64,000 nucleotides of DNA from an uncultured Oscillospiraceae bacterium (GCA_964609305.1 CAZSRK010000001.1:20411-84410), one strand, 5' to 3'. Shown: positions 30,925 to 64,000, numbered from the stretch's first letter. Program-made: numbers and translations. The notes: generated by a model not told the origin, from the letters alone.

Positions 30925-30946
30925 CTTTGTGACTCTCCTTTGTTTT

Positions 30947-32359
30947 TTATTTGATGTCATTGCCGGTCAGCGCGGCACGAAACTGCGTGGCGTCCTGCGT
31001 CCCTTCCTCCCGCCTGTACAGCCCGGGTACCGCCGCATACACCGCCGCGCAGGTGACCAGGTCCTGCTTCCAGGTTATCTCGTTCGGCGCGTGCGCCCAG
31101 CTCTCCGCGCCGGGACCAAAGCCAACGCAGGGAATACCATAGCGGCCCTGTATGGACACGCCGTTTGTTGAAAAGGTCCACTTGTCGGTCAACGGCCGGC
31201 CGCGGCGCAGATGCATCGCGTCGCGGTAATTATCCTCATCGGCATAGCCGATGCGCTCTTCGCCGAACATGGCGCGGTGCGCCTGTGCGAGCGCCTGCAC
31301 ATGTGCGGAGGTCTGCCTGTTTATCCAGGTCGGGAAATAGCATTCGGTCTCATATACCTCGCCTGTCCAGCTCGGCCGGTCGTACATATACATGGATACC
31401 GTGACGTCCTGTCCGTACTTTTTGACGGCGGGCAGCGCGCGTATCTCGTCCAGACAGGAATCCCAGGTTTCGCCGGCGGTCATACGCCTGTCTATCGACA
31501 CGGAGCAGGAGTCGGCCACCGCACAGCGGCTCGGGCTTGTAAAGAAGATCTCGCTGACCGTGCAGGTACCCCGGCCCAGAAAGCGCGCATCCTGCCAGTG
31601 TTCCGGGTTGTATTCCGGCTCCAGCATCTTTACAAGGCCCTTGATCTCCACGCTGTCATCCGCCGGGTTTTCGTTCAGCGCTCGCACGTCCTGAAGAATA
31701 TCCGCCATTTTATATATCGCGTTGTCGCCGCGCTCCGGCGCGCTGCCGTGGCAGGATACGCCCCTGACGTCGACGCGTATCTCCATGCGTCCGCGGTGGC
31801 CGCGGTATATGCCGCCGTCGGTCGGCTCCGTCGAAATGACAAATTCGATCCTGCTTCTCGCGTCCTCGGGTCCGTCAAAGTACTTGTTGACGATGTACTG
31901 CCAGCACATGCCGTCGCAGTCCTCCTCCTGTACGGAGCCGACGACCATGAGCCTGTATTCCTCGGGTATCAGGTCGAGATCTTTCATTATCTTCGCGCCG
32001 TACACGGCGGAGGCCATGCCCCCCTCCTGGTCGCTGCCGCCGCGGCCGTAGATTATCTCGTTGTCCTCCCAGCCCTCGTAGGGGTCGGCGCTCCAGTTGT
32101 CGATATTGCCGATGCCGACGGTGTCGATGTGGGAGTCGATGGCGATTATCCTGTCCCCATCGCCCATCCAGCCGATTACGTTGCCGAGCCCGTCGACCTC
32201 CACTTTGTCGAAGCCGAGCTTTTCCATCTCCGCCTTTATACAGGCGACGACCTCTCCCTCGTGGCAGCTCTCGCTCGGAAGCCTTATCATCGCGCGCAGG
32301 AACGCGCTCATGTCCTCCCGGTATCCCTTAGCAGCCGCCTTTATCGCTTCAAAATCCAT
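30947..32359 (-). CDS. ygeY: YgeY-like M20-family amidohydrolase
   Basis: [20 protein letters not shown] and EEDCDG are M20 metal and catalytic motifs. It is adjacent to ygeW and ygfK, as in the E. coli yge/ygf region. Confidence 0.8.
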
Positions 32360-32378
32360 AAATTTCCCTCCTTTTGTA

Positions 32379-35351
32379 TCAGTAAACCAGCCAACTGTAA
32401 TTATTTATGACGGCCCGGACCATATCTCCGGCCATATCAGGTATCTCATCAAGCGTATATTCGTTAGTTCCTTCTCCGATACGGACAAGTATCTGATTAT
32501 TTTCAAGAATAAGGAAACCGGGATTTTCACTGCTGTCAAAGTCCTCGCGCGTTGAAAAGAGTGTGAACTTCGTGCGGTACGGCCCGCCAACATAGGGGCA
32601 GAAGACCTCACAGTTGCCGCACTCGTTGCACATGGCGTCAACATGAAGTATCTGCCGCGCGCCGTTTACAGTCACGGCGATGTTTGCCCTGTTCGGACAT
32701 ACCTCACAGCAGGTCTCGCAGACGGTCGGGCACTCAAGGCAGCGGTAGGAATTGCTGACGTTATCAAGATCAGTGGCAAGATACCCGCGCTTGAACCTTG
32801 CAGACGTATCGTCAGGAGCAGCGTTTATCTCTTCATATTTTGACAGGTCGAGTCCGGCGATTGCCTGCACCGCCGCCGTCGCGCCTGCGATCGCCTCGAC
32901 GACTGTCTTGGGGCCGGTCCTCGCGTCGCCGGCGAGCCAGACTCCCTTAACATTAGTGCTTCCATCGGCATTGCAGACGGGCCTTCCCCGCTTGTCAAGC
33001 TCGATACCGAAACGGGAATAGAGCTCGCTGTCGGTACGCTCCCCGACAGCGGCGATGACGACGTCCGCGTCGACGTCCTGCGTCTGGCCGGTCGCGACAG
33101 GGCTGCGGCGGCCGCTGGAGTCCGGCTCGCCCAGACGCATGACCTGACAGGTCAGTTTGCCATCCCTCACCCCGACGGGCGCCAGCAGCGGCCGGAACTC
33201 GACGCCTTCGTGCATCGCCTCGACAAGTTCCTCCTCGTCGGCGGGCATGTTGCGCACATCCCGGCGATAGACGAGCGATACCTTCTCAACACCGCGGCAG
33301 CGCAGCGCGGCGCGTGCGGCGTCCATGGCGGTATTGCCTCCGCCGACTATGACAACGTTTTTACCGGGCTGAAGCGCCTCGCCCCGGGTCTTGAAATCAC
33401 GAAGAAATTCGATGACATTCCTCGCCTCGCCGTACTCCAGCCCGAGCTTTCCGGGATTCCATGCTCCTGTTGCGATAATAATGGTCTCAAAGCCAAGGGC
33501 TGCTATCTCATTTGGAGAATTTATCTCTCTGCCCGTTATGAACTCGACGCCCAGCGCCCGACAGAGCTCGAGGTCCCGATCAACCGTCTCTTCGCTGATG
33601 CGGAAGGAGGGAATTACGTTCCTGACGATGCCTCCGGGCTTTTCCAGGCGCTCGAATACCGTCGCCTTAAAACCCGCGCGGGCCAGGAAAAAAGCGCAGG
33701 ATATGCCGGCGGGGCCGCCGCCTATGATACCCACCTTTCGGCCGTTTGGCGCGGCTGGCCTGATCTCATTCAGAAGCTCTGCCTGCCCGTTCAGGGCGCT
33801 TTCAAGCTTGACGGCGCGGATGTCTACCGGCGCCTCATAGTGGTTTCTCATGCACTTGTTCATGCAGGTATGCGGGCAGATGGTGCCCGTGATGTTCGGC
33901 AGAGGGTTACGCTCGGTTATAACACGCAGCGCCTCGAGGTATCGTCCCTCTCCTGCCAGTCGCAGGTATGCGGGTATATCCTGATTTATCGGGCAGGTAC
34001 GGTGACAGGGTGCGGTAAAGCAGTCGAAGACAGGAAGCTGCTGCTCCAGCCTGCGCGAGGGCAGGGGCTTTACCGGCTTGCGGTAATGCCCGTCCTGCAA
34101 AGCCGCCGCGGCAAGAGCCGAGACCTTTTCCGTGCTTACCTTCTCAAATGGAACGTATTCCACATCCGCCATCATATCCGCAAGCTGGCACAGCCTGTTG
34201 TATCCGCCGGATTTGAGCAGCGTCGTGGCCATGGTTATGGGCCAGATGCCCGCGTTGAACAGATCCTCAATATTAAACGCATCCGCTCCCCCGCAGTAGC
34301 TTATCCGGAGCTTTCCATCAAATTCCGCGGCGAGCCGGCTGCACAGCTCTACCGTGAGCGGATACAGGCTCCTGCCGGACATATACATCTCCTCGGCCGG
34401 GAGCTCACCCTGCGTGACCTTGACGGGAAACGTGTTCGTGAGCTTGACCCCGAAGCTCAGGCCATGGCTTTCGGCCAGCGCCATGAGCCGGCGGAACATC
34501 GGCACCGCATCGGCATACTGCAGATCGTCGTTGAAGTGGAAATCGTCAAAGGCCATGTAATCGAAGCCCAGCGAATCAAGCGTTGAACGGGCAAATTTAT
34601 ATCCGAGCAGCGTGGGGTTGCATTTCACGAAAGTGTTGAGCTTTTTTCTCTCAACAAGATATGTCGCAATGCTTTCTATCTCTTTTGGAGGACATCCGTG
34701 CAGTGTAGAGAGGGTTATGCCGGAGCAGATACGCGGGGAAATACTGTCGATATAGTCCCAGCTTACCTTGTAGAAGCTGGAGAGATTGCCTTTGGCCCAG
34801 GACATACACTCCTGCCAGACGGCGGAGCCGGACGCGTCCCTGAGCCCCTCTATGAAAGCGTCTATCTTCGGCGACTGTATTCCGGCCAGGTCGTATCCTA
34901 CGGACATGTTGAACATGAACCCGTCCGGACGGCCGAGGCCGAATTCCAGTGAGATGAGCTTGAGCACAAACCAGGCCTTGACATACTCGTCGAACGCCTC
35001 CTGTACGGTCAGCTCGGTCGACCACTCGCAGTTATAGGCCTCGTCGCCGGAGGCGATGCAGGGCTTGTTTACACATGCGGCCAGCTCCCGTCCATCCACG
35101 GTCTGGACAGTCTTGAGCTCGAAAAAACGTCCGCCGGCGACATAGGCTGCGACTATGTTCTGCGCAAGCTGCGTATTCGGGCCTGCTGCGGGGCCGAAGG
35201 GCGTCTCCAGTTTCTCTCCGAACAGCTCCAGTGTCCGGCCGGGGGCCCTGTGCAGCTTTGAAACCCCGAAGACCGTGCCCTGGCTGCGGTATTCGGCGAG
35301 GATATGGGTCATCAGTTTTTCAAATGGTATCGGTTTCATTATATCGCTCAT
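32379..35351 (-). CDS. ygfK: YgfK-like Fe-S flavoprotein oxidoreductase (DPD-like barrel, GltD-like FAD/NAD(P) domains, ferredoxin domain)
   Basis: The 990-aa product has two dinucleotide folds ([21 protein letters not shown] and [15 protein letters not shown]). The C-terminus carries cysteine clusters [19 protein letters not shown] and [12 protein letters not shown]. Confidence 0.85.
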
Positions 35352-35370
35352 AATCTACCTCCTGTCGGGC

Positions 35371-36702
35371 TTAGCCGTTGAGCTCTTTCCAGAGCTTGTC
35401 CGCACTCGCCCGTATATGGGCGTTTATCGCTTCCTCATCGATATTCACGAGCTCTCGGTCGCGCATGAGCACCTTTCCGTTTACGACGGTGGTCTGGCAC
35501 TGTCGGCCGGTCATGCCGAATATCATGTGCCCGTCTATATTCGCGTCGGAGAACTGGGTAAAGGGCTTATAGTCCATGACGATGACGTCTGCGGCAGCGC
35601 CCTCGGATAGTATGCCCAGCGGTTTTCCGAAGTGGCGCGAGGCGATGGCCGGGTTGTTTCTGAACATTGCCCCCGTTACCTCCGTCCATGCGACGCCGGG
35701 CAGACAGGCGTTGTGCCGCTGGATGATGAGCGCGACTTTCAGGCTCTCGAGCATGTCGTGGGTATAGGCGTCCGTGCCCAGACCGACAGTTATGCCCTTT
35801 TTGCACATCTGGAGCACCGGCGAGCAGCCGACGGCATTGCCCATATTGGACTCCGGATTATTCACGACCGCCGTGTTCGTCTCTTTTATCAATTCCATCT
35901 CCGCAGTATTTATATGTATGCAGTGGCCAAGCAGCGTACGCTCGCCGAGTATACCGTGGTCATGCAGGCGCTGGACAGGACGGCGGCCATAATTTTGCAG
36001 GCTGTCATATACGTCGTTCATCCCCTCCGAGACATGGATGTGGTAACCCATGAGGCCGTTGTTCTCCTGTACGCAGCGCTCAAAGGTCTTGTCGGAGAGT
36101 GTGAAGAGCGCATGCATGCCGAACATCGGCTTTATCATGTCGCTGTTCTGCTCGATTGCCCATCTGCCAAACTCGACGTTCTCACGTATCGCCTGAAGGC
36201 ACTTCTCCTCCCCGTCACGGTCGGACACCTCGTAGCACAGGCAGGCGCGCTCGCCCAGCTCCTTTGCAACGTCGGCTATCGCAAAAAGTGATCCGGGGAT
36301 CTCCGCATAGCTGGCGTGATGGTCAAATATGGTCGTCACTCCCTGCTTTATACAGTCGATGATCGTCGCATAGGCGCTCGCGCGCGTGCCCTCGATGGTC
36401 AGATGGCGGTCAATGTTCCACCACATCCCGTCGAGCACTTCGAAAAAGTTCGTCGGCGCATACCCGTTTATGGACAGGCCGCGGGCCAGCGCGCTGTAAA
36501 TATGCGTGTGCGCGTTTATAAAGCCGGGCATTATCACACCTCCGCGCGCGTCGACGAACTCAGCGCCGAGATACTTCTGGCGTATCTGTGAAAAATCGCC
36601 GACCTCCACGATGGTATCCCCGTTGCAGGCGACCGCACCGTCCTCAAAATACGGTTTTTTCTCATCCCTTGTAATGACTTTTCCGTTTCCTATTATGAGC
36701 AT
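35371..36702 (-). CDS. ssnA: SsnA-like amidohydrolase
   Basis: The start at MLIIGNGKV follows GGAGG. It has the metal-binding motif PGFINAHTHIYS and lies immediately upstream of ygfK, as in E. coli. Confidence 0.8.
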   Translation of the reverse strand: MLIIGNGKVITRDEKKPYFEDGAVACNGDTIVEVGDFSQIRQKYLGAEFVDARGGVIMPGFINAHTHIYSALARGLSINGYAPTNFFEVLDGMWWNIDRHLTIEGTRASAYATIIDCIKQGVTTIFDHHASYAEIPGSLFAIADVAKELGERACLCYEVSDRDGEEKCLQAIRENVEFGRWAIEQNSDMIKPMFGMHALFTLSDKTFERCVQENNGLMGYHIHVSEGMNDVYDSLQNYGRRPVQRLHDHGILGERTLLGHCIHINTAEMELIKETNTAVVNNPESNMGNAVGCSPVLQMCKKGITVGLGTDAYTHDMLESLKVALIIQRHNACLPGVAWTEVTGAMFRNNPAIASRHFGKPLGILSEGAAADVIVMDYKPFTQFSDANIDGHMIFGMTGRQCQTTVVNGKVLMRDRELVNIDEEAINAHIRASADKLWKELNG

Positions 36703-36898
36703 TGCGACTTTACCTCCTCGATGCTTTTCCATCAAAAAGGGCGTCCACCTTTCGTGAACGCCCTTTCACGCGGCAGCAAAACGGCTTCAGCCTGCTCAAA
36801 GAGCGGGAGTATCAGCCCGTGCGCGAAGCACTTCGTTACAGCCGAAGAATATATTACCTGTATATCTGATTTTACCATCACTGTGTATTCCATTGCAA
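36703..36898 (-). promoter_or_regulatory. promoter plus about 165-nt structured leader ending in an intrinsic terminator, upstream of ssnA (candidate riboswitch or attenuator, class unknown)
   Basis: On the minus strand: TTGCAA (36893-36898), an 18-nt spacer, then TGgTAAAAT (-10 at 36869-36874). Several local hairpins follow. The terminator AAGGGCGTTCAC-GAAA-GGTGGACGCCCTT plus TTTTG (about 36731-36767) lies only about 25 nt before the ssnA RBS. A competing hairpin CGTGAA-AGGGCG-TTCACG overlaps the terminator 5' arm. Confidence 0.5.
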
Positions 36899-36906
36899 TA
36901 GCCAAA

Positions 36907-38169
36907 TCAAAAAATTCTTTTTCCGGACACAAATTTTGCGCAGCAGTCCTCTCCGCGGGAGAGGAAAATGAACCGCTCGAGACGCTCGCGCATCGAATAG
37001 GGCCGATTTGTACCGAACCTCGCCTCGTCGGCGACGACGGCGTCGAACTCAAACCCCTCGCAGAAAGCGCCGGTGTCTCCGAAGAACGCGCCTGCTCCGC
37101 GTGTCGCGAGATAGAACACCTCGTTGCAGCCGAGCGCTGCCTCCGGCTCCGAGCACAGCCTTGCGCGCAGTTTTGACGCTCGCATCGCCTCGCGCATCGC
37201 CTCGTTTATATCAAGGCTTTCTCCGCCGGATATGTCCGTACCCAGGCCGATGTTGACCCCCGCCTCGAGATATCGGCGCACGGGGGCGACGCCGCTTTTG
37301 ATATTGGAGTTGGAGCTGGGGCAATGGGCGATGAATGCGCCGCGCTGGAGCATAAGCTCAGTCTCCCGCCGGTCGTTATAAAGACAGTGCGCCATAACCG
37401 TCCTGTCCGTCAGCAGCCCGAAGCCGTCATATACGTCGGCATAATCCAGTGCGGAGGGGAAGAGCCTTTTGACCCACTCTATTTCGTCGTGCGTCTCGTC
37501 CAGATGTGACTGGACATACAGCCCCCGCCCGCGCACGAGCTCTCCCAGCCGGCGCAGCAGCTCATCCGTGCAGCTGGGCGCAAAGCGCGGGGTTATTATG
37601 GGTTTTGTGTTTTCAAACCCGGCGCAGCCGTCCAGCCAGCGCAAAGTCTCGCGCATCGAGCTGTTCGCGTCTTTCTCCCTCAGGAAATCGGGACAGTTCC
37701 TGTCCATGTTTACCTTTCCAACCAGGGTATGCAGCCCGCTCTCCTCCAGAAGACGCATGAGAAGCAAAGTCGCGGGCACATGCACCGTTGCGAATATGGC
37801 CGCCCGGGTCGTGAATCCCCGCCGGAGCTCTCCGACGAACGCGGCGTAGACCTTTTCGGCATACTGCATGTCCTCAAACTTTGCCTCTTCGGGAAAGGTC
37901 AGGCCGTCGAGCCACTGTATGAGCTCATGGTCCATGCCCAGTCCGAGGTCGGCATACTGGCTGGCATGGGTATGCAGATCGGAAAAGCCCGGCATCACGA
38001 ACTTTCCGGAAAAATCCAAAATGGGCAGTCCGGAATATCTCTCCGGCAGGGATCGAAACAATCCGGCGCAGCGCCCATCTTCACAGACAAGGAAAGAATC
38101 CTCCGAAAATTCGGCGCCTTTAGGTGTCGGCGCATGCACTATGTCGCCGCGCAGAACAAAATCCTTCAT
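36907..38169 (-). CDS. guaD: amidohydrolase-superfamily guanine-deaminase-like enzyme
   Basis: The start at MKDFVLRGDIVH follows ACGGAGG (the track ORF extends to 38328). Motifs are PGFSDLHTHASQ, HLDETHDEIEWV and GLGTDISGG. Confidence 0.65.
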   Translation of the reverse strand: MKDFVLRGDIVHAPTPKGAEFSEDSFLVCEDGRCAGLFRSLPERYSGLPILDFSGKFVMPGFSDLHTHASQYADLGLGMDHELIQWLDGLTFPEEAKFEDMQYAEKVYAAFVGELRRGFTTRAAIFATVHVPATLLLMRLLEESGLHTLVGKVNMDRNCPDFLREKDANSSMRETLRWLDGCAGFENTKPIITPRFAPSCTDELLRRLGELVRGRGLYVQSHLDETHDEIEWVKRLFPSALDYADVYDGFGLLTDRTVMAHCLYNDRRETELMLQRGAFIAHCPSSNSNIKSGVAPVRRYLEAGVNIGLGTDISGGESLDINEAMREAMRASKLRARLCSEPEAALGCNEVFYLATRGAGAFFGDTGAFCEGFEFDAVVADEARFGTNRPYSMRERLERFIFLSRGEDCCAKFVSGKRIF

Positions 38170-38372
38170 CAATACCGCCTCCGTTTTTGCCGCCATCCTG
38201 CTCCGGAACGGCGGATATATGCCCCTGCGCCCGTGCCCCATCCGGCATGAGAATGGCGCATATAATAAAATTGCGCAATATATTTTATCATATACGCCGG
38301 AGCAAAACAACTTGTGTTCGTCTGCCATTTATCGTATACTTGACTCAACCAGATAATTCGGGAGGATGTATC

Positions 38373-51792: not shown

Positions 51793-51814
51793 ACATCTAA
51801 TAAAATTGGATCGC

Positions 51815-51965
51815 AGTCAGATAGAGGCGCGGGACTGATGAGTATCGCCGGAAGAGACAGGCATCTGTCCGGCGGGAAAGGCCGCTCCGCCGAAGCGTTC
51901 CGGCGCTGCCTGGTGCCGGGATGGCTGGGCCGCAGGGAAATACTCTGCGGACTGTCACATGAGTT
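51815..51965 (+). promoter_or_regulatory. lysine riboswitch (L-box) aptamer
   Basis: GATAGAGGCGCGGGACTGATGAGTATCGCC...GGAAAGGCCGCTCCGCCGAAGC...CTGGGCCGCAGGG...GCGGACTGTCACA matches the B. subtilis lysC L-box block by block (AGAGGUGCG, GAGUA, CGCCGAAG, CUGG, GGCUGUCA). Confidence 0.88.
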
Positions 51966-52012
51966 TCGTGTGAAGCGCTATCACGGGTCGAACCGGCAAA
52001 GTCCGTATTCCC

Positions 52013-54796: not shown

Positions 54797-56190
54797 CTAA
54801 AGTCCGGAAACCAGGGCCCCCAGAGCCAGGAACGCGGCAATCAGCACTGCGAACAAAACAATCAGCTTCCAGACAAATTTCACCCAGCGGTCATAGGATA
54901 CATGGCCAAGGGCCAGCGCGCCCATAACCACCGCTGCCGTAGGGGTGATAAGGTTCACAAGCCCGGAGGCAGATTGGAAAGCGGTTATGATCAGCGCCTC
55001 GGAGATACCGGCAAACTTGCCCAGCGGCGCCATTATCGGGATGGACAGCGTCGCCAGGCCAGACGAAGATGGGATAAGGACACTAAGGGGCAAATACAGC
55101 AGGAATACCAGAAGAATAAATGCAAGCGAGCTGGTACCTGCCAAAGCATTTTCGCCCCAATTGAGGACCGTATCCGTAATACGTCCCTGGTTCATCAGAT
55201 ATGTGATGCCCCGGCTGATGCCAATGATGAAAGCCACACCAAGAAGGTACGATGCACCGTTGACAAATTCCTCGGCGATGACCGATTCCTTCATGCGGTC
55301 GATCAGGCCGATAATAAGGCCCGCCACCAGGAACAGCCCCGACAGCTCAGGAAACCACCAGCCCAGAGCAGGCAGGGGTAGCCCCATATCATCAAAGGGT
55401 ATAACGGCATAGATCATGATGAGAAAGGTTAAGGCAAAAACCGTCAGGATAACCTTGCGTTTTCCCGTCAGCGGCGGCGCGTCCTCCGTCTTTCCGTGAT
55501 AAATCTCCCTGCCCCGGTTGACCACCACAGAGGCGGCGGGGTCTTTTTTTACCTTGGCCGCATAGGCCATAACATACCAGATGGCTGCCGCTTCAAATAC
55601 CAGCCACATGAGTATGCGCAGGACGATACCCTCTCCCAGCGATACGCCGGCAAAACCGGCGGCAATCCCGGTGGCGAAAGGATTAACAGTGGAACAGATG
55701 ACACCGGCCCCCGCTCCCAGCAGTACGACGGCAATACCCACAACGGTATCATAGCCCGCAGCCAGGAAAATGGGGATCAGAAGAGGATAAAAAGCCATAT
55801 AGTCTCCTCCCACATGCCGAAGCTGGTCCCGCCGAGGCCAAAGAGGATCATCAAAATTGGGATCAGCCATTTCTCCCGTCCGTCCAACAGCCTGATGACA
55901 TTGCTCACTCCGGCATCCACGGCTCCCGTGCGCATAACCACGCCCAGGAATCCTCCGACCATGAGGATGAATACGCACACATCCACAGCGTCGTAAAAAC
56001 CGTGAAAGGCGGCAAGGATCACATCGCCCACACCTTGAGGATTCTGTTCCTCCTCATGATAAGTGCCGGAGGCCGGAACATCCTCATGGTACTCGTACTG
56101 CCCCGCCGGGACGAACCATGTGGCCACGGCCACCAGTATGATAAGACAGAACAAAATGGTATAGGCCGTTGGCATTTTGAATCTGGACAC
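54797..56190 (-). pseudogene. YfcC/DcuC-like basic amino-acid (arginine/ornithine) antiporter-type permease, split by a 1-nt frameshift
   Basis: ORF 55777-56190 gives the N-terminal part (...ILMILFGLGGTSFGMWEETI). ORF 54797-55978, in another frame, continues with AFYPLLIPIFLAAGYD.... The junction is near 55797. It occupies the last position of the ADI operon. Confidence 0.7.
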
Positions 56191-56211: not shown

Positions 56212-57206
56212 TTATGCCAGCGTAGCCACCAGCACAGCCTTGATGGAATGCATCCGGTTCTCAGCCTCGTCGAACACCACGCTGTGGCGGCTGCGGAAGA
56301 CCTCGTCGGTGACCTCCCTTATATCCACGCCCTTGTCCATCCACTCTTTGGCCAGCGTGGTTTCAAAATCATGGAACGAGGGCAGGCAGTGCATATACAG
56401 CACGTCGGGGTTACCGGTCAGTTGCAGGGTCTCTTCCGTCACCCGGAAGGGGGACAGCAGCCTGGCCCGGTCGGGGATGAGATTTTCCTCACCCATGGAC
56501 GCCCAAATATCACCATAGATGACATCTGCGCCCCGCAGACTGTTCTTATCGCTGGTTATTTCAATTTTGGCGCCGGTCTTTTCCGCGGCCTCATTGGCGG
56601 CGGCCAGCACGGCGGTATCCACCTGTCGTACCAGCTCTTCCGGGCCCAATCCCACAAAGTGCATGCCCATCTTGGCGCAGCCATACATCCAGGCATAGCA
56701 CATGTTGTTGCGCACGTCGCCGGGGAACACCACTTTTACATCCTTCAGGGGTTTTGTGCAGTGCTCCTCGATCGTCATCATATCAGCCAGTATCTGGGTG
56801 GGATGATCAAGGTCGGTCAGCCCGTTCCACACCGGTACGCCGGACCATTTGCCAGGTCCTCGACTACCTGCTGGTCATAGCCTCGATATTCTATGCCGTC
56901 AAAGAAGCGGCCCAGGACCTTGGCGGAATCCTCCAGGGATTCCTTTTTGCCCATCTGAGAGGAACCGGAATACAGGAAGGTGACATGTGCGCCCTCCTGA
57001 GTTGCGGCCACCTCAAAGGAGCAGCGGGTGCGGGTCGAGGTCTTTTCAAACAGCAGAACGATATGCTTGCCTTTCAGCGTGGGCTCGCAGATTCCCGCGC
57101 GTCGCTTTGCCTTCAGATCGTGTCCCAGATCCAGCAGATAGCGGATCTCAGCAGTGGTCAGGTCATTGAGAGTCAAAAAGCTCTTTCCTTTCAAATTTAC
57201 AGCCAT
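56212..57206 (-). pseudogene. arcB: ornithine carbamoyltransferase, split by a 1-nt frameshift
   Basis: ORF 56817-57206 contains [18 protein letters not shown] 56212-56832, in another frame, continues with [20 protein letters not shown] and HCLPSFH. The junction lies in a short A/T run near 56848-56850. Confidence 0.85.
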
Positions 57207-57313: not shown

Positions 57314-58543
57314 TTAGTCCACATCCTCCCGCCACAGCGGCATGGACATACATCTTGGGCCGCCCCGTCCCCGGCTCAGTTCCCCACTGGGGATAGTGTG
57401 GATTTTAACGCCGTGTTCCTCAAGCAGACGGTTGGTCACATAGTTGCGGCTGTACACCACCACCTCGCCGGGAGCAATGGCCAGTGTGTTGCTGCCGTCG
57501 TTCCACTGTTCCCTGGCCGCGTCTATCTCACTGCCGTGGCCACAGCGGATGAGCGTCACGTTGTCCAGATTCAGGTGCTCTTTAAGGATATCCTCCAGAC
57601 GGCCGTCCTCCTGGCGTATCTTTACCTGTCTGCGTTCATCCAGCTCCATGACAAACACCGTGATATCGTTTAAAATATTTGGGTGAACTGTGAACTTATC
57701 CCTGTCCACCATGGTAAAAACGGTGTCCAGGTGCATGAAGGAGCGGGTTTTTGGAATATCGAACGCCAGAATTTTTTTGAAAGTCCTGCTCTCGTTGAGA
57801 ACGGTGTACGCCAACTGGTCGATGGAGTCCTCGTGGGTGCGCTGGGATATACCAACGGCCAGCACCTCCGGCGACAGTACAAGGATATCTCCTCCCTCCA
57901 GCGAGGAGGTCTCGCCCCGGTCATACCACCGGGGCGCATTTTTGTACTCCGGATGGTATTTGAAAATGAATTTTCCAAACAGGGTCTCCCGGTTACGGGT
58001 CTGAGTATGCATTTTGTGGATACTTACACCTGTGCCGATGGTGGCAAAGGGGTCGCGGGTAAAATACAAATTGGGCATGGGGTCAATTATAAAGGGATAG
58101 TCGCCGCCGCTAAGGGTCAGAAAATCCCCCAATCGGGCTTTGTCTGACTCTTTAAGCTGGGACTTGCGCACACCGGCCATCATGGCGGATATCATCTCCT
58201 CATCGGACATGGATGAGAAATACTCCACCATCATCTCTCTGGCACGCGGCTGCTTTATGTCGGCCTCGTCCAGAAACTGATAGAGCAGTTCGTTTCGGAC
58301 CTGCTCGTCAGTGAGAGACTGCGCCACCAGGTCGGTGAGATAAACCACCTCCGCCCCTCTCTGGCGCAGGCATTCGGCGAAAGCGTCGTGCTCCCGCTGC
58401 GCCTCCTGAAGATAGGGTATATCGTCAAACAGCAGCCGCTCCAGATATTCCGGCATCAGGTTTTCCAGCTCCCTGCCTGGCCGGTGCAGCAGCACCTTCC
58501 TGAGTTTGCCGATCTCCGAAGTGTTATGGATTCCGGTATTCAA
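57314..58543 (-). CDS. arcA: arginine deiminase
   Basis: The TTG start at 58543 lies 7 nt after AAAGGAG and gives about 410 aa. Motifs are [24 protein letters not shown] and the catalytic-Cys context [10 protein letters not shown]. Confidence 0.9.
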
Positions 58544-58661
58544 AAGATCACTCCTTTTTACTGTGAGAAGCCGGCCAGAGACGGCCGTTTTCCTCTTATC
58601 TCTTAGGGTTTCTGGAAAATGCCGTTTCATGCGTCCCAATAGAAAAAATAACTTTAATGCT

Positions 58662-58775
58662 GTTTTTCGGTATATCATATCTTTTCTCCAAATGTGCAGT
58701 TTCATCCGGCGTAAGTTTGTTGGGCCTGGATTTTTTGCTTTCGGATATGCCAGTCCTATGCGTTTTTCGGTATAT
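58662..58775. repeat. two copies of GTTTTTCGGTATAT exactly 100 bp apart, upstream of arcA
   Basis: One copy is at 58662-58675 and the other at 58762-58775. Each is preceded by ATGC. Possible regulator-binding sites. Confidence 0.6.
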
Positions 58776-58824
58776 GCTGAATAATTTTCGCCCGGGAGGG
58801 AGCTCTCCGTGCTTCTACAAATGC

Positions 58825-58856
58825 AAAAACCCCGCTGTGTACATACACAGCGGGGT
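58825..58856 (-). terminator. intrinsic terminator after beta-helix paralog B
   Basis: The minus strand reads CCCCGCTGTGTA-TG-TACACAGCGGGG followed by TTTTTG. Confidence 0.85.
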
Positions 58857-58881
58857 TCTATATTATGAACTTTTAATACTC

Positions 58882-60658
58882 TTATTTAACTTCGAGCACG
58901 ATGCGACCCTTGAAGCTGCCGGCAGTGATCGCAGTCTCGACGCCGTCAACGAGCATGCGCAGCGTTTTTCCCTCGGGGGCCCTGACAACGGCTCCCTCGG
59001 CCAGCGTGAGGCTGGTTATATAGCTGGTATCGGTGACGGTCCAGACGCTGTCTTCGTCCATCGTGATGATGACGCCGTTGTTGACAGTGGGCGCGGCCTC
59101 CTGCTCAACACAGCTTATGAGGTAATAGCTCTCCGCGTTGATGACGTCGGTTCCCTCCTCGGGATACCACTGCTTCGCCGCGGACATCACGCTCTCGGCG
59201 CGGACGTTCTTCATGTCGATGACGAGGTTGTGCGCGCCCTGAAGGCCCTCGCCCATGTCCTCCCAATCCTCGGGGTCAATACCGGCCGGGATCTCCATGG
59301 GTCCGTTACGGTCGTTGGCCTTCAGCTCCGTGGTGGAATTGAGGAAGTCGCCGCAAACGTCCATGTTGGACAGGTTTACGAAAATATCCAGAGTCGGGTC
59401 GGGATTCCACAGATCGCGGTCGACGTAAACGTCGGTCTCATCATAGGGGATCTTGTAGAAGTCGCCTCCGCCCATGCCGGGGTCGTCGTTGTCCATGAGC
59501 TGGACTATCACGCCGTTGCCGGAGTAGATCTCACAGTTGTCAAAATTGAAGGTGCTGGTGGAGCCCTTGACGCAGACGGTGGAGCTGTCGGTGTTGATAA
59601 CGGTGCCGCGGTCAAAGGTCACGGTGCCATAGCGGTCGCGGAAGGCCATGACGGCAAAGAGGTTGCCCGTGATGGAGCAGTTGGAGAAGTTTCCGCCGCT
59701 CTCGGAGTGGTCCATACCACGCTTCTCAGGCTCGGAGTCGAGGAGCATCGCAAATCCGTTGACATTCAGCTCGCAGCCGTCGAAGCCGAAGTAGCAGTCG
59801 CCAATGCAGAACACGCCGTAACCGCGGGCGCGCGGGCCGGTCAGGTCGAGCGTCGTGTTGCGCAGATATGCGCGGTTATGGATGGAGCCGTCAACGGAGA
59901 TAACGCCCCAGCCGTTGGACTTCATGTACGAGTCGTTGATGTACACGGTCGCGTTTTCACATACCTGATTGGATCGGTTGGTGCCGTAAATACCCATCAG
60001 CCAGTTCGGGGATCCAAGCAGGCGGGGGTTGTCCACGGCCTTTGGGCTGTTATTGATTATACGGCTGTTATTTATAGTCAGCACCGTGTCGCCGCCAGCG
60101 TGGAAGCAGCAACGCGTCACTCCGGAGAACTGAAAATCGCAGTCCTGTATGGTGACCTGGCTCTTTCCGATAGCCGTCACACCGGCACCGACGTCGATAA
60201 AGTCGTCACTTCCGCTGCCCTCGAACTCAAAGCGGCAGTTGCCGCACCTCATATTTGCTGTCTCCATCGATGAGTATGCCGTTGACGTCATTCTCGCAGG
60301 AATAAAACTCGACGTCACAGGCATAGGTGTCGGTTATCTCTCCACGGTTTGCCATGCCGAGGAAGGAACGCTTTTCGCAAAGCTTTCCGTTATCGATCAC
60401 GGCAGCGCAGCGGAACATGGTGTCCGGCCCGCCGAACAGACGGTGCAGCCCGGAAGGCGGCATCACATAAAAATCATGGACAAGGACCTTGACGTCGCCT
60501 CGGTAAGTGCCAGGCACGGCGGCCTCATTACGTCCGTTCACCATGAGGATGACACCCTTGCCCTCAGGGGCCTCAAGCTTTCCTCCCTCTTCGATGACGA
60601 GGCTGGACAGTTCAACGGATTCTTCGACTTTCCAGACATCGTTTACAACTTTTTTCAT
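58882..60658 (-). pseudogene. uncharacterised beta-helix-like repeat protein, paralog B, split by a 1-nt frameshift
   Basis: ORF 60227-60706 (real start MKKVVNDVWKVEE at 60658, after AAGGAGAA) aligns to the first 140 aa of paralog C. ORF 58882-60324 aligns to the remainder. The restored junction would read KYEVRNCRFEFEGSGSDDF, against YTLNNVKMNLVGRGENDF in paralog C. The junction is near 60241-60250. Confidence 0.8.
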
Positions 60659-60730
60659 GCTTTTCTCCTTATCATTCATGGTATTTAAGCGTGACAGTTG
60701 CTCCACTTGGGAAAGCAGTTTCTGAGCAAA

Positions 60731-60756
60731 CCGGGGAGGGGTCTCCCCCTCCCCGG
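60731..60756 (-). terminator. GC-rich hairpin between paralogs C and B
   Basis: CCGGGGAGGGG-loop-CCCCTCCCCGG, with a short T-tract (TTTGCTC) on the minus strand. Confidence 0.55.
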
Positions 60757-60765
60757 GCCTGGTTT

Positions 60766-62628
60766 TTATTTGACCTCGAGCACGATCTTTCCGGTATAGG
60801 TGCCGGCCTTGATCGGGGTCTCGACTCCGTCGACGAGCATGCTCACGCTCATGGCCCTGGGGGCCTTAATGGTGGCGTTCGGGGACAGGGTCAGCTTGGT
60901 CAGATAGCTGGTGCCGGTGACGGTCCAGACGCTCTCGTCGTCGAGAGAGACGATGACGCCGTTATTGACAGCGGGAGCGGGGGTCTGGACGATGTTGTTG
61001 ACTTCGTCACGGTTGCGGTTGTCGATAAAGTAGACGCCCTCGCCATACTTCTGGCTGGCGGCGCTGATGATGCCGGTTACGCTGGCAGAAGTGAGGTTGA
61101 CCTCGAGGTTCTTCGCACCCTGGAGATAGGGATTGTAGCCGCCCGCGCCGCGCACGACGTCGCCGGGGATGCCGCCCATTTCTTCGGGCGTGAACGGTTC
61201 GGGATCGTCGGGATCGGGTTGCGGCATCGGCGGGGGACCTCTCCGGGGCAGGGGTTCATAGACGTCGGACTCCTTGGGCTCATCGAAGATGGCAAACAGG
61301 TTCGTCGTGGAGTTGAAAATATTGCCCTTGAGCGCGGAGTTGGAGATGTTGAAGAACACGTCCTCGTCGGGGGACGCTACGGTCAGATCACGGCCCTCTA
61401 CGTACTCGTCGACGCGATCGACGGGGACGCGGAAAGACTGCGGGCCTCCCATGCCGGGGTCGTCGTTGTCCATGAGCTGGAGGATGACGTCATTGCCCGG
61501 GAAGAATCTGGCCTTGTTGGCGTTGATGGTGAAGCGAGAGCCCTTGACGATCATCGCGGACGAGCCGGTATAGAAAGTCGCATCGTCGATATCGAGATAT
61601 CCGCCGTCGTTGCGGAAAGTCTCGGTGCCCCAGCGGCGGGAGTTAACGATGGTGCCGTTTTTGAACTCGCCGCTGGCGTTGTTGGTGCAGCAGATAAGCG
61701 CCATACCACCGACGGTGACAACGCAGTTGTCAAAGCTGTGCAGGCAGCGGGGGTCTGCCAGACCGTCATACTCGCTGTAATCATTGAAGTTGTCGGCGAT
61801 TCCCATCGCACCGTAGCCGGAGGGGCTGGTCTGCATGATGATGCAGTCTTTGTAGTACAGGTGATTGTACTTACCGCCGTCGACGCTCATCGCGCCCCAG
61901 CCGTTGGTGGAGATGAAGCAGTCGTTGTAGTAGCAGGTTGCCATGTGGCCGGCATTGGTGATACGGTTCGTGCCGTAGAGGCTCATCGACCAGTTAGGAT
62001 CGACCTTATCGTCAAACGGGGCACTCTCTCCGATGATGCGTGTGCGGTTGACAGTCAGCTCGGAATTGTTGCCGGCGAAAATAGCGCCGCGGGTGACGCC
62101 CTTGACAATGAACTCGGAGTCGTTGACGGTGACCTTGGCGTCGCCGTAGATGGCAAGGCCGGCGCCGCAGGCCTGGAAGTCGTTCTCTCCGCGGCCGACG
62201 AGATTCATCTTGACGTTGTTGAGAGTATACTCGCCCTCGCCGGTGATGTAGATGCCGTTGAGACCGCCGTCGTTGGCCTCGATCGTGACATTTTCGACGG
62301 TTTTCCCGTCAAAGCTGCCGCCCTTGACAGCGCCGGGGATGCAGTATTCCTCAACGACCTGGTTGTCTCTGAGGAAGATGCCGGTGCGGTAGAAGGTCTT
62401 CTGAGGAGTGCCCCAGATGCCGACCTTGGTCAGGTAGCTGTCACCAACGTACAGAAGGATGTCGCCCTCATAGCTGCCGGGTTTGATATCGGTCGGCATG
62501 CCGTTGAGAAACATCGTGACACCCTTGCCCCAGGGAGCCTTGACGGAAGCACCCTCATTGACGACAAGCTTGTCGAGATGTGTGGTTTCTTCGATTTTCC
62601 ACACACCGTCAATAATTTTTTCGCTCAT
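60766..62628 (-). CDS. uncharacterised beta-helix-like repeat protein, paralog C (no signal peptide)
   Basis: The 620-aa ORF follows an AGGAGGAAAG RBS. It carries the same motif set as paralogs A and B (GRGENDF, YGTNRITN, NGWGAMSVDG, GNDVILQLMDNDDPGMGG, NSTTN, VNNGVIV, WTVTGTSYLT). It has a proline-rich linker PLPRRGPPPMPQPDPDDPEP. Confidence 0.85.
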   Translation of the reverse strand: MSEKIIDGVWKIEETTHLDKLVVNEGASVKAPWGKGVTMFLNGMPTDIKPGSYEGDILLYVGDSYLTKVGIWGTPQKTFYRTGIFLRDNQVVEEYCIPGAVKGGSFDGKTVENVTIEANDGGLNGIYITGEGEYTLNNVKMNLVGRGENDFQACGAGLAIYGDAKVTVNDSEFIVKGVTRGAIFAGNNSELTVNRTRIIGESAPFDDKVDPNWSMSLYGTNRITNAGHMATCYYNDCFISTNGWGAMSVDGGKYNHLYYKDCIIMQTSPSGYGAMGIADNFNDYSEYDGLADPRCLHSFDNCVVTVGGMALICCTNNASGEFKNGTIVNSRRWGTETFRNDGGYLDIDDATFYTGSSAMIVKGSRFTINANKARFFPGNDVILQLMDNDDPGMGGPQSFRVPVDRVDEYVEGRDLTVASPDEDVFFNISNSALKGNIFNSTTNLFAIFDEPKESDVYEPLPRRGPPPMPQPDPDDPEPFTPEEMGGIPGDVVRGAGGYNPYLQGAKNLEVNLTSASVTGIISAASQKYGEGVYFIDNRNRDEVNNIVQTPAPAVNNGVIVSLDDESVWTVTGTSYLTKLTLSPNATIKAPRAMSVSMLVDGVETPIKAGTYTGKIVLEVK

Positions 62629-62758
62629 GTTTTGGTCTTTCCTCCTGTTCTTAAAAAATAGCAGATTATAGGTGCTGCGCGGGATATTTGCCGGGGGAAA
62701 TACTCAAACTCTCAGGGGCGATGAGGCACCGCCCCGAGAAACTTTGACGAAATTAGGA

Positions 62759-64000
62759 TCAGATGCCCAGATCCAGAGCCGCGAAGTAGCCCTCGTGTAC
62801 GGCGTTGGGGACCTTGCGGGCACGCTTGCAGTCGCCGGCCGCGACGAAGTCGTCCGCGCAGTCACGCAGGGAGTCGACGGTGGCGGAGTTGGCGCGCATG
62901 CCAAGGCCGAAGATGACGGTATCGGCCTCCAGTATGCTCTCGGATCCGTCCGGGTTCTTGACGCGGACGCCGTTGGGCAGGACCTCGAGACAGGTCGTGG
63001 AGGTGTGCACGCCGATGCTGTACTTCTCGATGGGCACGAGCATACCCTGCTGGCTCATCCAGTTGGCGTCGCGCGCCAGCTCCGGCAGCATCTCGACGAT
63101 GTCGACCTGGTGGCCGAGCTCGGCCAGGAATATGCCGGTCTCGCAGCCGGCCAGACCGCCGCCGACCATGACGACCTTCTTGCCGATCTTATCAAGCTCC
63201 TTGTATGCCTCGAGAACGTGCATCGCGTTCTCCTTCAGGCCCGGGATCGGGGGCTGTATCGGGCTGGAGCCGCAGGCGCAGATTATCGCATCGGGAGCCA
63301 GCTTATCCATGAGCTCGGGCGTGGCCTCAGTATTGTACATGACCTTGATGCCAAGCTTGTTTACACGGTTTACAAGATAGTTCTTGAAGCGGCGCAGGTC
63401 GACTTTCATCTCGTCATAATCGGTGAAGTTGATGATGCCGCCGAGCTTGTCGCTCTTCTCGACCAGGGTCACGTCATGGCCGCGCCCAGCCGCGGTGATG
63501 GCGGCCTTCATTCCGCCGGAACCGCCGCCGACAACGACGACGTTGAGCTTCTCCCTGACGTCGGGCTGGGAGGTCAGGCGTGCCTCGCGATATGTACGCG
63601 GGTTGACGGAGCAGTTGGCAGCGTCGGTCATCTGCAGGCCGGTCAGGCAGCTCAGGCAGCGGATGCAGGGGATGATGTCCTCGCTCTTGCCGTGCTTTGC
63701 CTTTCTTGCAAAGTCAGGGTCGGCAATGAAGGTGCGGGCGCCGGCGATGAAGTCGGCTCCGCCTTCCTCGAGGATCTGCTCGGCCAGTTCGGGAGTGTTG
63801 ATGGCGCCGATGGCGACGACGGGGCTCTTGACATGCTTTCTTATCTCGGCCGCGAGATAGGCGTTGCAGCCGTTCTTGAGGAAGATGGTCGGGTGCGTGA
63901 TAACGGCGCCCTCGTCCGTCGAGTCACGCGCGGCGGAGACGTGGATGATGTCGACATAGTCGTCGATGATCTTGCAGAACTCAACGGCATCCTGAAGGGT
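62759..64000 (-). CDS. enoate-reductase / 2,4-dienoyl-CoA-reductase-family flavoprotein, C-terminal part (N-terminus beyond the window end)
   Basis: The track ORF starts at an internal Met, but the frame stays open to 64000. My translation upstream gives ...PVVAIGAINTPELAEQILEEGGADFIAGARTFIADPDFARKAKHGKSEDIIPCIRCLSCLTG...NCSVNP (end of the OYE barrel plus the Fe-S cysteine motif). It is followed by VVVVGGGSGGMKAAITAAGRGH and VVMVGGGLAGCE dinucleotide folds. Confidence 0.85.
   Translation of the reverse strand, partial: TLQDAVEFCKIIDDYVDIIHVSAARDSTDEGAVITHPTIFLKNGCNAYLAAEIRKHVKSPVVAIGAINTPELAEQILEEGGADFIAGARTFIADPDFARKAKHGKSEDIIPCIRCLSCLTGLQMTDAANCSVNPRTYREARLTSQPDVREKLNVVVVGGGSGGMKAAITAAGRGHDVTLVEKSDKLGGIINFTDYDEMKVDLRRFKNYLVNRVNKLGIKVMYNTEATPELMDKLAPDAIICACGSSPIQPPIPGLKENAMHVLEAYKELDKIGKKVVMVGGGLAGCETGIFLAELGHQVDIVEMLPELARDANWMSQQGMLVPIEKYSIGVHTSTTCLEVLPNGVRVKNPDGSESILEADTVIFGLGMRANSATVDSLRDCADDFVAAGDCKRARKVPNAVHEGYFAALDLGI

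Follow-up and report, generated by a model that had tools for sequence, protein, structure and literature searches.

RESULTS

Genes at the locus. The window, a 64,000-nucleotide stretch of DNA from an uncultured gut Oscillospiraceae bacterium, encodes three related proteins of about 600 residues, referred to here as A, B, and C (Table 1). The genes for B and C are neighbors and the third copy, A, lies about 40 kb away, as the first-pass annotation had described. Its picture of two adjacent paralogs of about 600 residues was correct for B, which is an intact open reading frame, and had to be amended for C, which is split by a frameshift into two frames. Pairwise identity is 36% between A and B, 31% between A and C, and 41% between B and C, and alignment of the A and B subfamilies by hhalign returned a probability of 100%. 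In the public record, A begins at 18356 and has 599 residues, and the database protein P0225 is 100% identical to it. The short motifs reported to be shared are present in all three proteins, with small deviations only (DDF, TTE, and WTVTDTSYIT in C; GNDVI in B). Conservation also extends to the DNA itself, as a 27-nucleotide motif occurs once in each gene with at most one mismatch when none would be expected (100 shuffles). Related Oscillospiraceae metagenome-assembled genomes hold four to seven copies each, and thus the family is indeed expanded.

Table 1. Features in the window (positions counted from its first nucleotide)
Feature	Position	Strand	Basis or remark
MFS transporter, convergent with A	14754-16457	+	Pfam MFS_1, MFS_2, PUCC; match from residue 141
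Paralog A, leaderless beta-helix protein, separate subfamily	16557-18362	-	601-aa ORF
IclR-family regulator, divergent from A	18509-19285	+	Pfam HTH_IclR and IclR_C
Intrinsic terminator 3' of C	58828-58857	-	13-bp stem, then TTTTGCATTT
Paralog C, 591-aa beta-helix gene with +1 frameshift	58882-60658	-	two overlapping ORFs
Frameshift site in C, one extra base near 60245	60241-60247	-	pairwise DNA alignment
GC-rich hairpin between B and C, 11-bp stem, weak T tail	60731-60756	-	possible partial terminator or mRNA-stabilizing element
Paralog B, leaderless beta-helix protein, intact	60766-62628	-	620-aa ORF
Conserved DNA stretch encoding QLMDNDDPG	61453-61479	+	copies also at 59476-59502 and 17190-17216
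FadH/2-enoate-reductase-type Fe-S flavoenzyme gene, 3' part (413 codons)	62759-64000	-	runs off the window end

Paralog C is read in a 159-residue frame (60227-60706) and a 480-residue frame (58882-60324). The intact ortholog in L005 is 91% identical over residues 1 to 591, and at the frameshift site it has AT-CCGC where C has GTGCGGC. The gene starts at an ATG with the ribosome binding site AAGGAG just 5' of it. Relative to the intact ortholog, both halves of C have a dN/dS of 0.06 to 0.09, and B, which is 91 to 92% identical to its orthologs, has a dN/dS of 0.07 to 0.08.

The adjacent reductase and the transcription unit. B and C lie downstream of a flavoprotein gene on the same strand, and the flavoprotein is of the FadH/2-enoate-reductase type. 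It had been called a multidomain OYE/Fe-S/FAD reductase; the Fe-S and FAD portions were found in the window, while the body of the OYE domain falls past base 64000 and was deduced from an ortholog. The portion in the window is the counterpart of residues 235 to 647 in a 647-residue ortholog (L001:4312-6255; 94% identical) and covers the final stretch of the OYE barrel (~56 positions), a C-x2-C-x2-C-x11-C motif, and an FAD/NAD domain. Pfam matched the fragment to Pyr_redox_2 (1.9e-35) and to the last 56 positions of Oxidored_FMN, and its translation contains the four-cysteine [4Fe-4S] motif CIRCLSCLTGLQMTDAANC and a C-terminal FAD/NAD(P) domain. The ortholog aligns to BaiCD/FadH-type NCBIfam models over residues 5 to 643 and to 2-naphthoyl-CoA reductase (PDB 6qkg) over residues 5 to 641, the N-terminal OYE region being included in both, and another member of the reductase cluster (L027) has a full-length Oxidored_FMN match. 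The closest PDB relatives of the ortholog are 6qkg and 2,4-dienoyl-CoA reductase (1ps9). Identity with BaiCD or BilR was rejected, as the ortholog scored 400.5 bits against a BaiCD equivalog cutoff of 825 and 375.7 bits against a BilR-long cutoff of 750.

The reductase gene, B, and C are separated by gaps of 130 and ~107 nucleotides, and the only strong terminator in the unit follows C. Judged from the sequence, this terminator is the end of a reductase-B-C transcription unit, and the weaker hairpin between B and C may act as a partial terminator or as an mRNA-stabilizing element. Rfam and tRNA scans found no RNA element in or beside the operon. Orthologous loci have the gene order LysR< OYE> BH>(BH>), where BH is a beta-helix gene.

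Fold and family. A right-handed beta-helix had been proposed from motif spacing, and confident AlphaFold models (A, pLDDT 93.8 and pTM 0.92; B, pLDDT 88.9 and pTM 0.91) agree: both are all beta and built of short, regular strands, and every Foldseek match is a beta-helix protein. Searched against PDB and BFVD, the models returned generic glycan lyases, hydrolases, tailspikes/depolymerases, and pertactin, mostly polysaccharide-active proteins, and the matches are weak (best E of about 1e-3, TM of about 0.3) and speak to fold class and not to a catalytic family. Lyases were the top matches of both A and B (E of 1e-3 to 1e-2), and a conserved Asp/Arg/Lys set is present.

Profile searches likewise assigned the proteins to no characterized family, as anticipated. 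Only the generic model PF13229 was matched, and in the window copies it fell below the gathering cutoff of 25.9 bits (B, 19.6; A, 16.1; C fragment, 22.6); among 53 family members, 32 matched at an E of ≤0.5, the best at 3.3e-9. There was no specific Pfam, NCBIfam, PHROG, or PDB match: NCBIfam gave only noise on A, B, and C, and PDB sequence searches with B and with a 53-sequence profile found no relative. GH28 and pectate-lyase signatures had been reported missing, and we too found no GH28, pectate-lyase, or other CAZy-type Pfam match in the window copies or the 53 members, among which PF00295 (GH28) had no match at an E of ≤1. Moreover, GH28 enzymes carry the series NTD, DD, GHG, and RIK one coil apart, and the conserved residues D150, R180, R222, W244, D250, Y272, K362, and D389 do not fit that spacing. 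A phage tailspike or depolymerase was rejected because no PHROG matched at an E of ≤0.01 and the neighbors are metabolic genes. NosD was rejected because PF05048 matched only 3 of the 53 members, weakly and below threshold (best E of 0.0049), because the window copies lack a signal peptide, and because no nos genes lie nearby. A literature search for beta-helix proteins together with OYE, SnoaL, or ene-reductase found nothing relevant. We conclude that A, B, and C are members of a large, unnamed family of right-handed beta-helix proteins of ~600 residues.

The family comprises 1,408 representatives at 50% identity. Each protein is flanked by two homologous cap modules of ~55 residues and is broken up by a variable Pro-rich loop. 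A row of conserved Asp, Arg, Lys, Tyr, and Trp residues occupies one turn position of successive coils. Counted in 121 leaderless and 49 signal-bearing members, conservation reaches 86% or more in both classes at each of D150, R180, W213, R222, W244, S248, D250, Y272, K362, and D389, which sit at equivalent G-x-x turns of successive coils. The eight residues compared with GH28 above form the polar set common to leaderless and secreted proteins.

Leader absence was judged from hydropathy and intergenic space. As first noted, A, B, and C have no N-terminal hydrophobic segment, and the intergenic gaps upstream of them are so short that they leave no room for a leader. The view of a cytoplasmic family held for the leaderless clade of the window and failed for the wider family, which also includes secreted, lipoprotein, and SLH-anchored members, many of them multimodule surface proteins with SLH, choline-binding, or Ig anchors. 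Thus, a cytoplasmic location is a property of the clade and not of the family.

Gene neighborhoods. Linkage to OYE-type reductases, which the first-pass annotation had proposed to check across related genomes, is kept among orthologs and is met again in remote clades and other phyla, but it is not universal. When the 25 family genes flanked by 5 kb or more in each direction were counted, 16 had a FadH/OYE-type reductase, an FAD_binding_2 protein, or a SnoaL_4 protein encoded within 5 kb. In a set of 90 family genes from contigs of which many are truncated, 42 have a member of the OYE cluster or an FAD_binding_2 gene no more than 3 kb away, and OYE genes make up 12% of immediate neighbors compared to about 5% at 7.5 to 10 kb, a rough gauge of enrichment by distance decay. 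OYE neighbors were recounted with the OYE N domain alone after a clustering artifact came to light at 32382-35351, where a second supposed "OYE" of the window is a Pyr_redox_2 and Fer4_20 protein with no OYE domain. By this measure, 26 of the 90 genes have a true OYE no farther than 3.5 kb away, on the same strand in 19 cases. SnoaL_4 and FAD_binding_2 proteins are equally frequent partners, and for 36% to 50% of family genes no reductase is close by.

Oscillospiraceae, Desulfobacteraceae, Treponema, and the lipoprotein branches from environmental sources all show the linkage. One member of the A subfamily (P0238) sits in the arrangement AraC<> SBP-FAD_binding_2-OYE-BH with a 15-bp gap, and a Treponema locus reads FAD_binding_2-OYE-BH, in which the beta-helix protein is a lipoprotein. 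Desulfobacteraceae loci place a Sec-signal beta-helix protein amid Tat-signal flavoproteins; there and in locus L076 both kinds of protein are exported. In the environmental branches, the beta-helix gene accompanies SnoaL_4, FAD_binding_2, ferredoxin, and an OYE-like gene. One-component regulators (usually LysR, PucR, or AraC) and solute-binding lipoproteins are usually near, and leaderless beta-helix genes lie directly 3' of such lipoprotein genes in 17 immediate adjacencies. SnoaL_4 neighbors are ~256 residues long, occur as tandem triplets, and have no NCBIfam match at 1e-20. Alpha/beta hydrolase, PS decarboxylase, low-molecular-weight phosphatase, HAD, and DUF362 genes were rejected as partners, being housekeeping or lineage specific and not family-wide, and no recurrent sugar-catabolic genes were found in the family neighborhoods. 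Open reading frames in the loci were chosen by codon-usage score, and the low-GC Clostridium loci L073 and L075 were read by hand.

Paralog A has no reductase nearby, its neighbors being the IclR regulator and the MFS transporter only; the true start of the latter is probably near 15140. Co-occurrence with IclR held for close relatives of A alone: P0227, 78% identical to A, has the same IclR<>BH arrangement and a 437-residue MFS protein in the equivalent place, and IclR is missing from the 72 other family loci.

DISCUSSION

In several phyla, the family occurs repeatedly next to flavin-dependent C=C reductases, and thus it probably supplies a missing enzyme of inducible "import-and-reduce" pathways. 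That it is a conserved enzyme preparing an imported compound for flavin-dependent reduction is the interpretation we favor, with confidence that is about evenly balanced. Across the family, the beta-helix gene is a recurrent third component of putatively substrate-specific cassettes, in which it is joined by a regulator of the one-component kind, an importer or solute-binding lipoprotein, flavin-dependent C=C reductases (FadH/OYE-type and/or FAD_binding_2), and SnoaL_4 (NTF2-like) proteins. B and C would be cotranscribed downstream of the FadH-type Fe-S flavoenzyme, and A, B, and C, having no leader, would act in the cytoplasm. The beta-helix enzyme may cleave or convert an imported compound into an enone or enoate that the flavoenzymes would then reduce. 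The compound would probably be a precursor in conjugated, glycosylated, or oligomeric form that binds in the groove of the helix, and different substrates may lie behind the expansion of paralogs. The earlier, hedged suggestion of a new enzyme or substrate-handling component came through in each part that could be put to a test. More specific, and rather doubtful as it stands, is the proposal of a new enzyme class, in which a beta-helix lyase, hydrolase, or isomerase would act on an imported conjugate or oligomer to free or form an alpha,beta-unsaturated carbonyl compound, and reduction of this product by the FadH-type or FAD_binding_2 enzyme would serve as an electron sink. One candidate route is a beta-elimination like that of polysaccharide lyases, which yield enoates. 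If cleavage and reduction are so coupled, the module would be widespread, in uncultured gut Oscillospiraceae and sediment Desulfobacterota alike.

Perhaps the proteins are instead ordinary carbohydrate-active enzymes, a new GH/PL-like family for imported oligosaccharides that lies near reductases only because the genomes are rich in them. The Foldseek neighbors are glycan lyases and hydrolases, including a cytoplasmic exopolygalacturonase of T. maritima, and secreted relatives carry the SLH, Big_2, or choline-binding anchors found on glycan-degrading enzymes of Firmicutes. SBP_bac_8 (with DUF3502) and SBP_bac_5 lipoproteins encoded directly upstream, and the family genes that lack a nearby reductase, would fit as well. 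The reductase association, however, is repeated across three phyla and across separate subfamilies, with same-strand adjacency, gaps down to 15 bp, and different regulators, and it declines with distance from the beta-helix gene. Moreover, sugar-catabolic neighbors do not recur and no GH or PL Pfam model matches, and we regard a stand-alone role as unlikely. Distinctly unlikely, in our view, is a noncatalytic binding, carrier, or scaffold protein that presents a bulky or hydrophobic substrate to the reductases, with the secreted relatives as adhesins. The top Foldseek matches include pertactin and further autotransporter passenger domains, no catalytic motif of a known family is recognizable, and multimodule surface-anchored relatives exist, a profile that also fits adhesins or plain glycan depolymerases. 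Against a carrier, D150, R180, R222, D250, K362, and D389 are near invariant across compartments and subfamilies, more like an active site than an adhesin surface, and purifying selection is strong (dN/dS, 0.06 to 0.09). In Treponema, direct handover is impossible, as the beta-helix protein is a lipoprotein and the reductases are cytoplasmic.

That difference in compartment also weighs against the idea, drawn by analogy to NosD, that the protein assists or matures the flavoenzyme or serves as one of its structural subunits. Tight operonic coupling, the few weak NosD matches, and the joint export of beta-helix proteins and flavoproteins in Desulfobacteraceae and L076 would be consistent with it, but those matches are far below threshold, many family genes occur without any reductase, and the partners vary (OYE, FAD_binding_2, or neither). 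To our knowledge, FadH-type and FAD_binding_2 enzymes need no such factor, and we consider this role very unlikely. Finally, the frameshift in C and further split genes close by might mean that the locus is decaying and has left C, possibly with the entire set, as a nonfunctional remnant. B is intact, however, and the low dN/dS values of B and of both halves of C indicate constraint; moreover, several split genes within a few kilobases point to assembly indels more than to decay, which we find highly improbable.

Uncultured Oscillospiraceae are abundant in high-fiber guts of humans, ruminants, and poultry and are suspected to convert steroids, bile acids, and compounds from plants. Here, a beta-helix family without a name, a structure, or a literature has about 1,400 representatives and recurs beside C=C reductases, NTF2-like proteins, importers, and regulators, and it is therefore a concrete, testable lead to missing reductive steps for xenobiotics and phytochemicals. 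Each paralogous cassette has its own regulator, which offers a route to the substrate through induction. If the preparing enzyme is catalytic as we favor, beta-helix enzymology would reach beyond the breakdown of glycans by secreted enzymes into small-molecule pathways of the cytoplasm.

Several known systems resemble parts of this arrangement. Beta-helix CAZymes (PL1/PL6/PL9, the fucoidan lyase FdlA, K1 capsule lyase, GH28, GH110, and phage tailspike depolymerases) share the fold of A and B, are the top structural neighbors of both models, have conserved acidic, basic, and aromatic residues along successive coils, and likewise have secreted and cell wall-anchored relatives. The family described here differs in having no sequence or HMM match to them and only weak structural matches (E of ≥1e-3, TM of about 0.3), in the leaderless window clade, in the two homologous 55-residue caps, and in a context of flavin reductases and NTF2-like proteins rather than sugar catabolism. 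NosD, the periplasmic beta-helix accessory protein of N2O reductase, is similarly tied genetically to a reductase and an ABC system; the partners here are flavoenzymes and not a copper enzyme, and the window proteins are cytoplasmic.

The bai genes (BaiCD/BaiH with BaiE/BaiI) also combine a FadH-type Fe-S flavoenzyme with SnoaL_4 proteins, and among NCBIfam models it is BaiCD that gives the reductases found here their highest score. We know of no beta-helix gene in the bai operon. Moreover, the reductases here reach about half the equivalog cutoffs (400 versus 825 bits), and no CoA ligase, CoA transferase, or HSDH neighbors were found. In the bai pathway, a SnoaL_4 dehydratase works with the FadH-type flavoenzyme, and uncultured Oscillospiraceae have been reported as bai carriers (PMC10382948). 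Finally, Eggerthella, Sutterella, and Holdemania have many paralogous reductase loci, each with its own regulator and induced by substrate (bioRxiv 10.1101/2022.12.26.521950), much as the many paralogous cassettes here come with LysR, PucR, AraC, or IclR. The reductases of those systems are for the most part exported and respiratory, of the FAD_binding_2 or molybdopterin kind, and beta-helix and SnoaL_4 partners are not described for them; the reductases here are mainly cytoplasmic, of the FadH/OYE type, and belong to Oscillospiraceae.

Results

Three paralogs of the beta-helix family had been claimed in the window, two of them adjacent genes of about 600 residues (B and C), and of that pair B is intact, but C is frameshifted and lies in two ORFs that overlap in different frames, with no single ORF (see table). 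A related Oscillospiraceae MAG (locus L005) carries an intact C ortholog with 91% identity across all 591 residues. In that alignment, a single surplus base appears in the window within GTGCGGC, around 60245, and when it is deleted C aligns in register with B. Moreover, comparison with orthologs gives a dN/dS of 0.07-0.08 for B and of 0.06-0.09 for each half of C, and thus the frameshift in C is either very recent or an assembly error. Genes for an ornithine carbamoyltransferase (OTC) and a C4-type anaerobic transporter are also split by frameshifts, and together with C they suggest assembly indels or a pseudogene patch. Two adjoining ORFs at 25773-26458 (-) fall in one homology cluster and are possibly another split gene. 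Long ORFs antisense to B and C are GC-bias artefacts that mislead length-based ORF picking, and one of the two exceeds the real gene in length. The third copy, A, was found far from the other two, as claimed. The short motifs of the first-pass annotation are indeed common to A, B, and C with small deviations (pairwise identity, 31-41%), and the proposed conservation of the DNA itself is borne out by a 27-nt stretch coding for QLMDNDDPG, present three times when none is expected.

Features of the window
Feature	Position	Strand	Remarks
Paralog A	16557-18362	-	601-aa ORF
ssnA RNA motif	36804-36851	-	Rfam, 51.6 bits
Lysine riboswitch	51814-51988	+	Rfam, 100 bits
C4-type anaerobic transporter, split	54797-55978 and 55777-56190	-	frameshift
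Ornithine carbamoyltransferase, split	56212-56832 and 56817-57206	-	frameshift
ORF antisense to C	58657-60273	+	538 aa
Intrinsic terminator 3' of C	58828-58857	-	strong
Paralog C, 3' ORF	58882-60324	-	480 aa
Paralog C, 5' ORF	60227-60706	-	159 aa
ORF antisense to B	60691-62661	+	656 aa
Paralog B	60766-62628	-	intact 620-aa ORF
Reductase gene, 3' part	62759-64000	-	413 residues; continues past window end

The gene directly 5' of B agrees with the predicted OYE/Fe-S/FAD reductase over the part inside the window: the fragment contains the end of the OYE (Old Yellow Enzyme-type) barrel, a C-x2-C-x2-C-x11-C motif, and a Pyr_redox_2 FAD/NAD domain. It shares 94% identity with residues 235-647 of an ortholog of 647 aa, for which the nearest solved structures are those of 2-naphthoyl-CoA reductase and 2,4-dienoyl-CoA reductase, and by its sequence the enzyme is assigned as a FadH/2-enoate-reductase-type Fe-S flavoenzyme. 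BaiCD and bilirubin reductase were rejected as identities because the ortholog scores about half of the respective NCBIfam cut-offs. A strong terminator follows C and the B-C gap holds a GC-rich hairpin whose T tail is poor, so reductase, B, and C plausibly form one transcription unit. Orthologous loci have a LysR gene in divergent orientation ahead of the reductase. Beyond the beta-helix operon lies an arginine deiminase pathway unit (arcA, OTC, and transporter; 57314-58705 [-] and downstream). At that position the orthologous loci L005 and L007 have DegV, MatE, and GntR genes, which in the window occur at ~45-52 kb in inverted order, and this indicates a local rearrangement. Elsewhere, the ssnA motif is located between two amidohydrolase genes in a cluster (29725-38328) that includes an M20 peptidase, a carbamoyltransferase, and a 990-aa Pyr_redox_2+Fer4_20 protein.

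The fold of the family was assigned by modeling. Pfam returned for A, B, and C the generic Beta_helix model alone, under its cut-off, and NCBIfam, PHROGs, and PDB sequence searches, including one with a 53-sequence profile, gave no match for the paralogs. AlphaFold models built from family alignments were all-beta and confident for both B (pLDDT, 88.9; pTM, 0.91) and A (pLDDT, 93.8; pTM, 0.92). Foldseek against PDB and BFVD retrieved right-handed beta-helix proteins exclusively, among them fucoidan lyase FdlA, K1 capsule lyase, PL6 lyases, GH28 and GH110 enzymes, tailspike depolymerases, and pertactin, none better than an E value of ~1e-3 and with a TM score of ~0.3. Thus, the right-handed beta-helix guessed from the sequence is settled by the models for A and B, and no characterized family can be assigned, as HMM, sequence, and structure checks named the fold class at most. 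In B, an N-terminal module (residues 7-61) precedes the central helix and is homologous to a C-terminal module (565-619; 40% identity, E value of 6e-15), and no Pfam model covers these ~55-residue modules. A low-confidence Pro-rich loop at about residues 455-500 is a variable insertion site in relatives.

How widely the family occurs, and where in the cell, was addressed with a family profile searched against 1.84 billion representatives, which found 1408 proteins at E<=1e-3, 565 of which reached E<=1e-30; almost none of the family is named. Among 224 sampled family proteins, 122 are leaderless and 86 carry a signal-like N terminus. Long members fuse two or three modules and bear signal peptides together with anchors of the SLH, Big_2, choline-binding, or Ig-like type, and a large environmental branch consists of lipoproteins. 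The claimed absence of a leader therefore stands for the window clade, in which upstream gaps are too short to hold one, but fails for the wider family, and cytoplasmic location appears from sequence to be a property of the clade rather than of the whole family. Some multimodule fusions are leaderless doubles (P0075 and P0078) and others, such as P0072, P0073, and P0099, are secreted; by analogy, they parallel the tandem B-C pair and hint that tandem copies might act together. Leaderless and signal-bearing classes both retain D150, R180, W213, R222, W244, S248, D250, Y272, K362, and D389. The conserved polar and aromatic residues occupy equivalent G-x-x turn positions on successive coils, a row expected of a single groove-shaped putative active or binding site.

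A scan of one genome per species yielded 72 family loci, mostly in uncultured Oscillospiraceae MAGs, which, consistent with the proposed expansion, carry four to seven copies each; the remainder come from Desulfobacteraceae, Treponema, Lachnospiraceae, and Clostridium. Six loci (L026, L029, L041, L046, L048, and L069) were assigned to bins labeled Barnesiella, Bacteroidaceae, Prevotella, or Flexilinea and are likely misbinned, as their gene order is that of Oscillospiraceae loci (e.g., L026 versus L025). Partners were found by unbiased clustering of neighboring ORFs followed by Pfam annotation. Recurrent were FadH/OYE-type reductases, FAD_binding_2 flavoproteins, LysR and PucR regulators, Opp-type ABC systems with SBP_bac_5, SBP_bac_8+DUF3502 lipoproteins, MatE, and SnoaL_4 proteins of ~256 aa, encoded as tandem triplets (62 genes across 19 loci). 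Typical orders, with BH denoting the family gene, are PucR/LysR - SnoaL x3 - OYE - BH and LysR< SBP-perm-perm-ATPase-BH-OYE-SnoaL x3. The reductase linkage proposed from the window recurs across related genomes, where 42/90 family genes have an OYE-cluster or FAD_binding_2 gene no more than 3 kb away. A true OYE N-domain lies within 3.5 kb of 26, on the same strand in 19. When counting was limited to family genes flanked by at least 5 kb on each side (n = 25), 16 had, within 5 kb, an OYE-cluster gene (FadH-type or related Pyr_redox_2), a FAD_binding_2 gene, or a SnoaL_4 gene. Moreover, OYE genes make up 12% of immediate neighbors versus about 5% of genes at 7.5-10 kb.

Independent cases of the association were also seen. 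P0238, an A-subfamily protein 49% identical to A, is encoded in the order AraC<> SBP_bac_1 - Fer4/FAD_binding_2 - OYE - BH, with a 15-bp gap before BH. Desulfobacteraceae loci place a Sec-signal BH among Tat-signal flavoproteins, in a Treponema locus a lipoprotein BH comes after the genes for cytoplasmic FAD_binding_2 and OYE proteins, and two environmental lipoprotein members neighbor SnoaL_4, FAD_binding_2, and ferredoxin genes and an OYE-like gene. The suggested IclR linkage was confirmed beside A and a 78%-identical homolog but is absent from the other 72 loci, so regulator type varies between cassettes. SnoaL_4 triplets (e.g., L018:~5000-8000, L027, L017, and L032) adjoin a FadH-type reductase and BH; the proteins are about twice the usual SnoaL length, had no NCBIfam match at 1e-20 and no PDB sequence relative, and may assemble into a heterotrimeric NTF2-like dehydratase or isomerase. 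On the JGI contig of P0291 (genes at 7741-9975), a 744-aa DUF5916 protein is encoded directly downstream of a lipoprotein member, at a locus with FAD_binding_2, ferredoxin, and SnoaL_4 genes, and may be an outer-membrane component of that system.

Discussion

On the best-supported reading, the family works as a conserved partner of flavin C=C reductases. BH would belong to substrate-specific cassettes with a sensor-regulator and, often, an importer, and would act on the substrate before reduction. Leaderless BH genes immediately follow lipoprotein SBP genes, which argues for action ahead of the reductase, and so does the Treponema BH, which is extracytoplasmic where the reductases are cytoplasmic. 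Both facts count against BH being a physical subunit, and a NosD-like accessory factor of the flavoenzyme, which proximity to reductase genes might suggest, is very improbable.

Whether BH is catalytic is a separate matter. Invariant charged residues and strong purifying selection favor an enzyme over a passive scaffold, and we regard a noncatalytic binder as quite unlikely. The structural neighbors suggest that BH may cleave a glycosidic or similar linkage. They would also suit a stand-alone carbohydrate-active enzyme whose reductase linkage is incidental; the linkage recurs across the scanned genomes, and we consider this reading unlikely. A conserved partner of flavin reductases remains the preferred reading.

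Databases list the family as hypothetical or "right-handed parallel beta-helix repeat-containing" proteins, and our literature search found nothing on it. Its fold is a familiar one. New to the literature, as far as we found, are the clade without a leader, the paired cap modules, and the link to flavin reductases and NTF2-like proteins throughout the family. The family offers a solid and testable way into how uncultured gut Oscillospiraceae carry out reductive metabolism. Gut bacteria carry substrate-induced reductase loci beside regulators (bioRxiv 10.1101/2022.12.26.521950), and bile-acid 7-dehydroxylation pairs a SnoaL_4 dehydratase with a FadH-type flavoenzyme (PMC10382948). Both precedents make the cassette idea plausible, and the beta-helix protein sets the present loci apart, as neither the gut reductase loci nor the bai system is known to include one.
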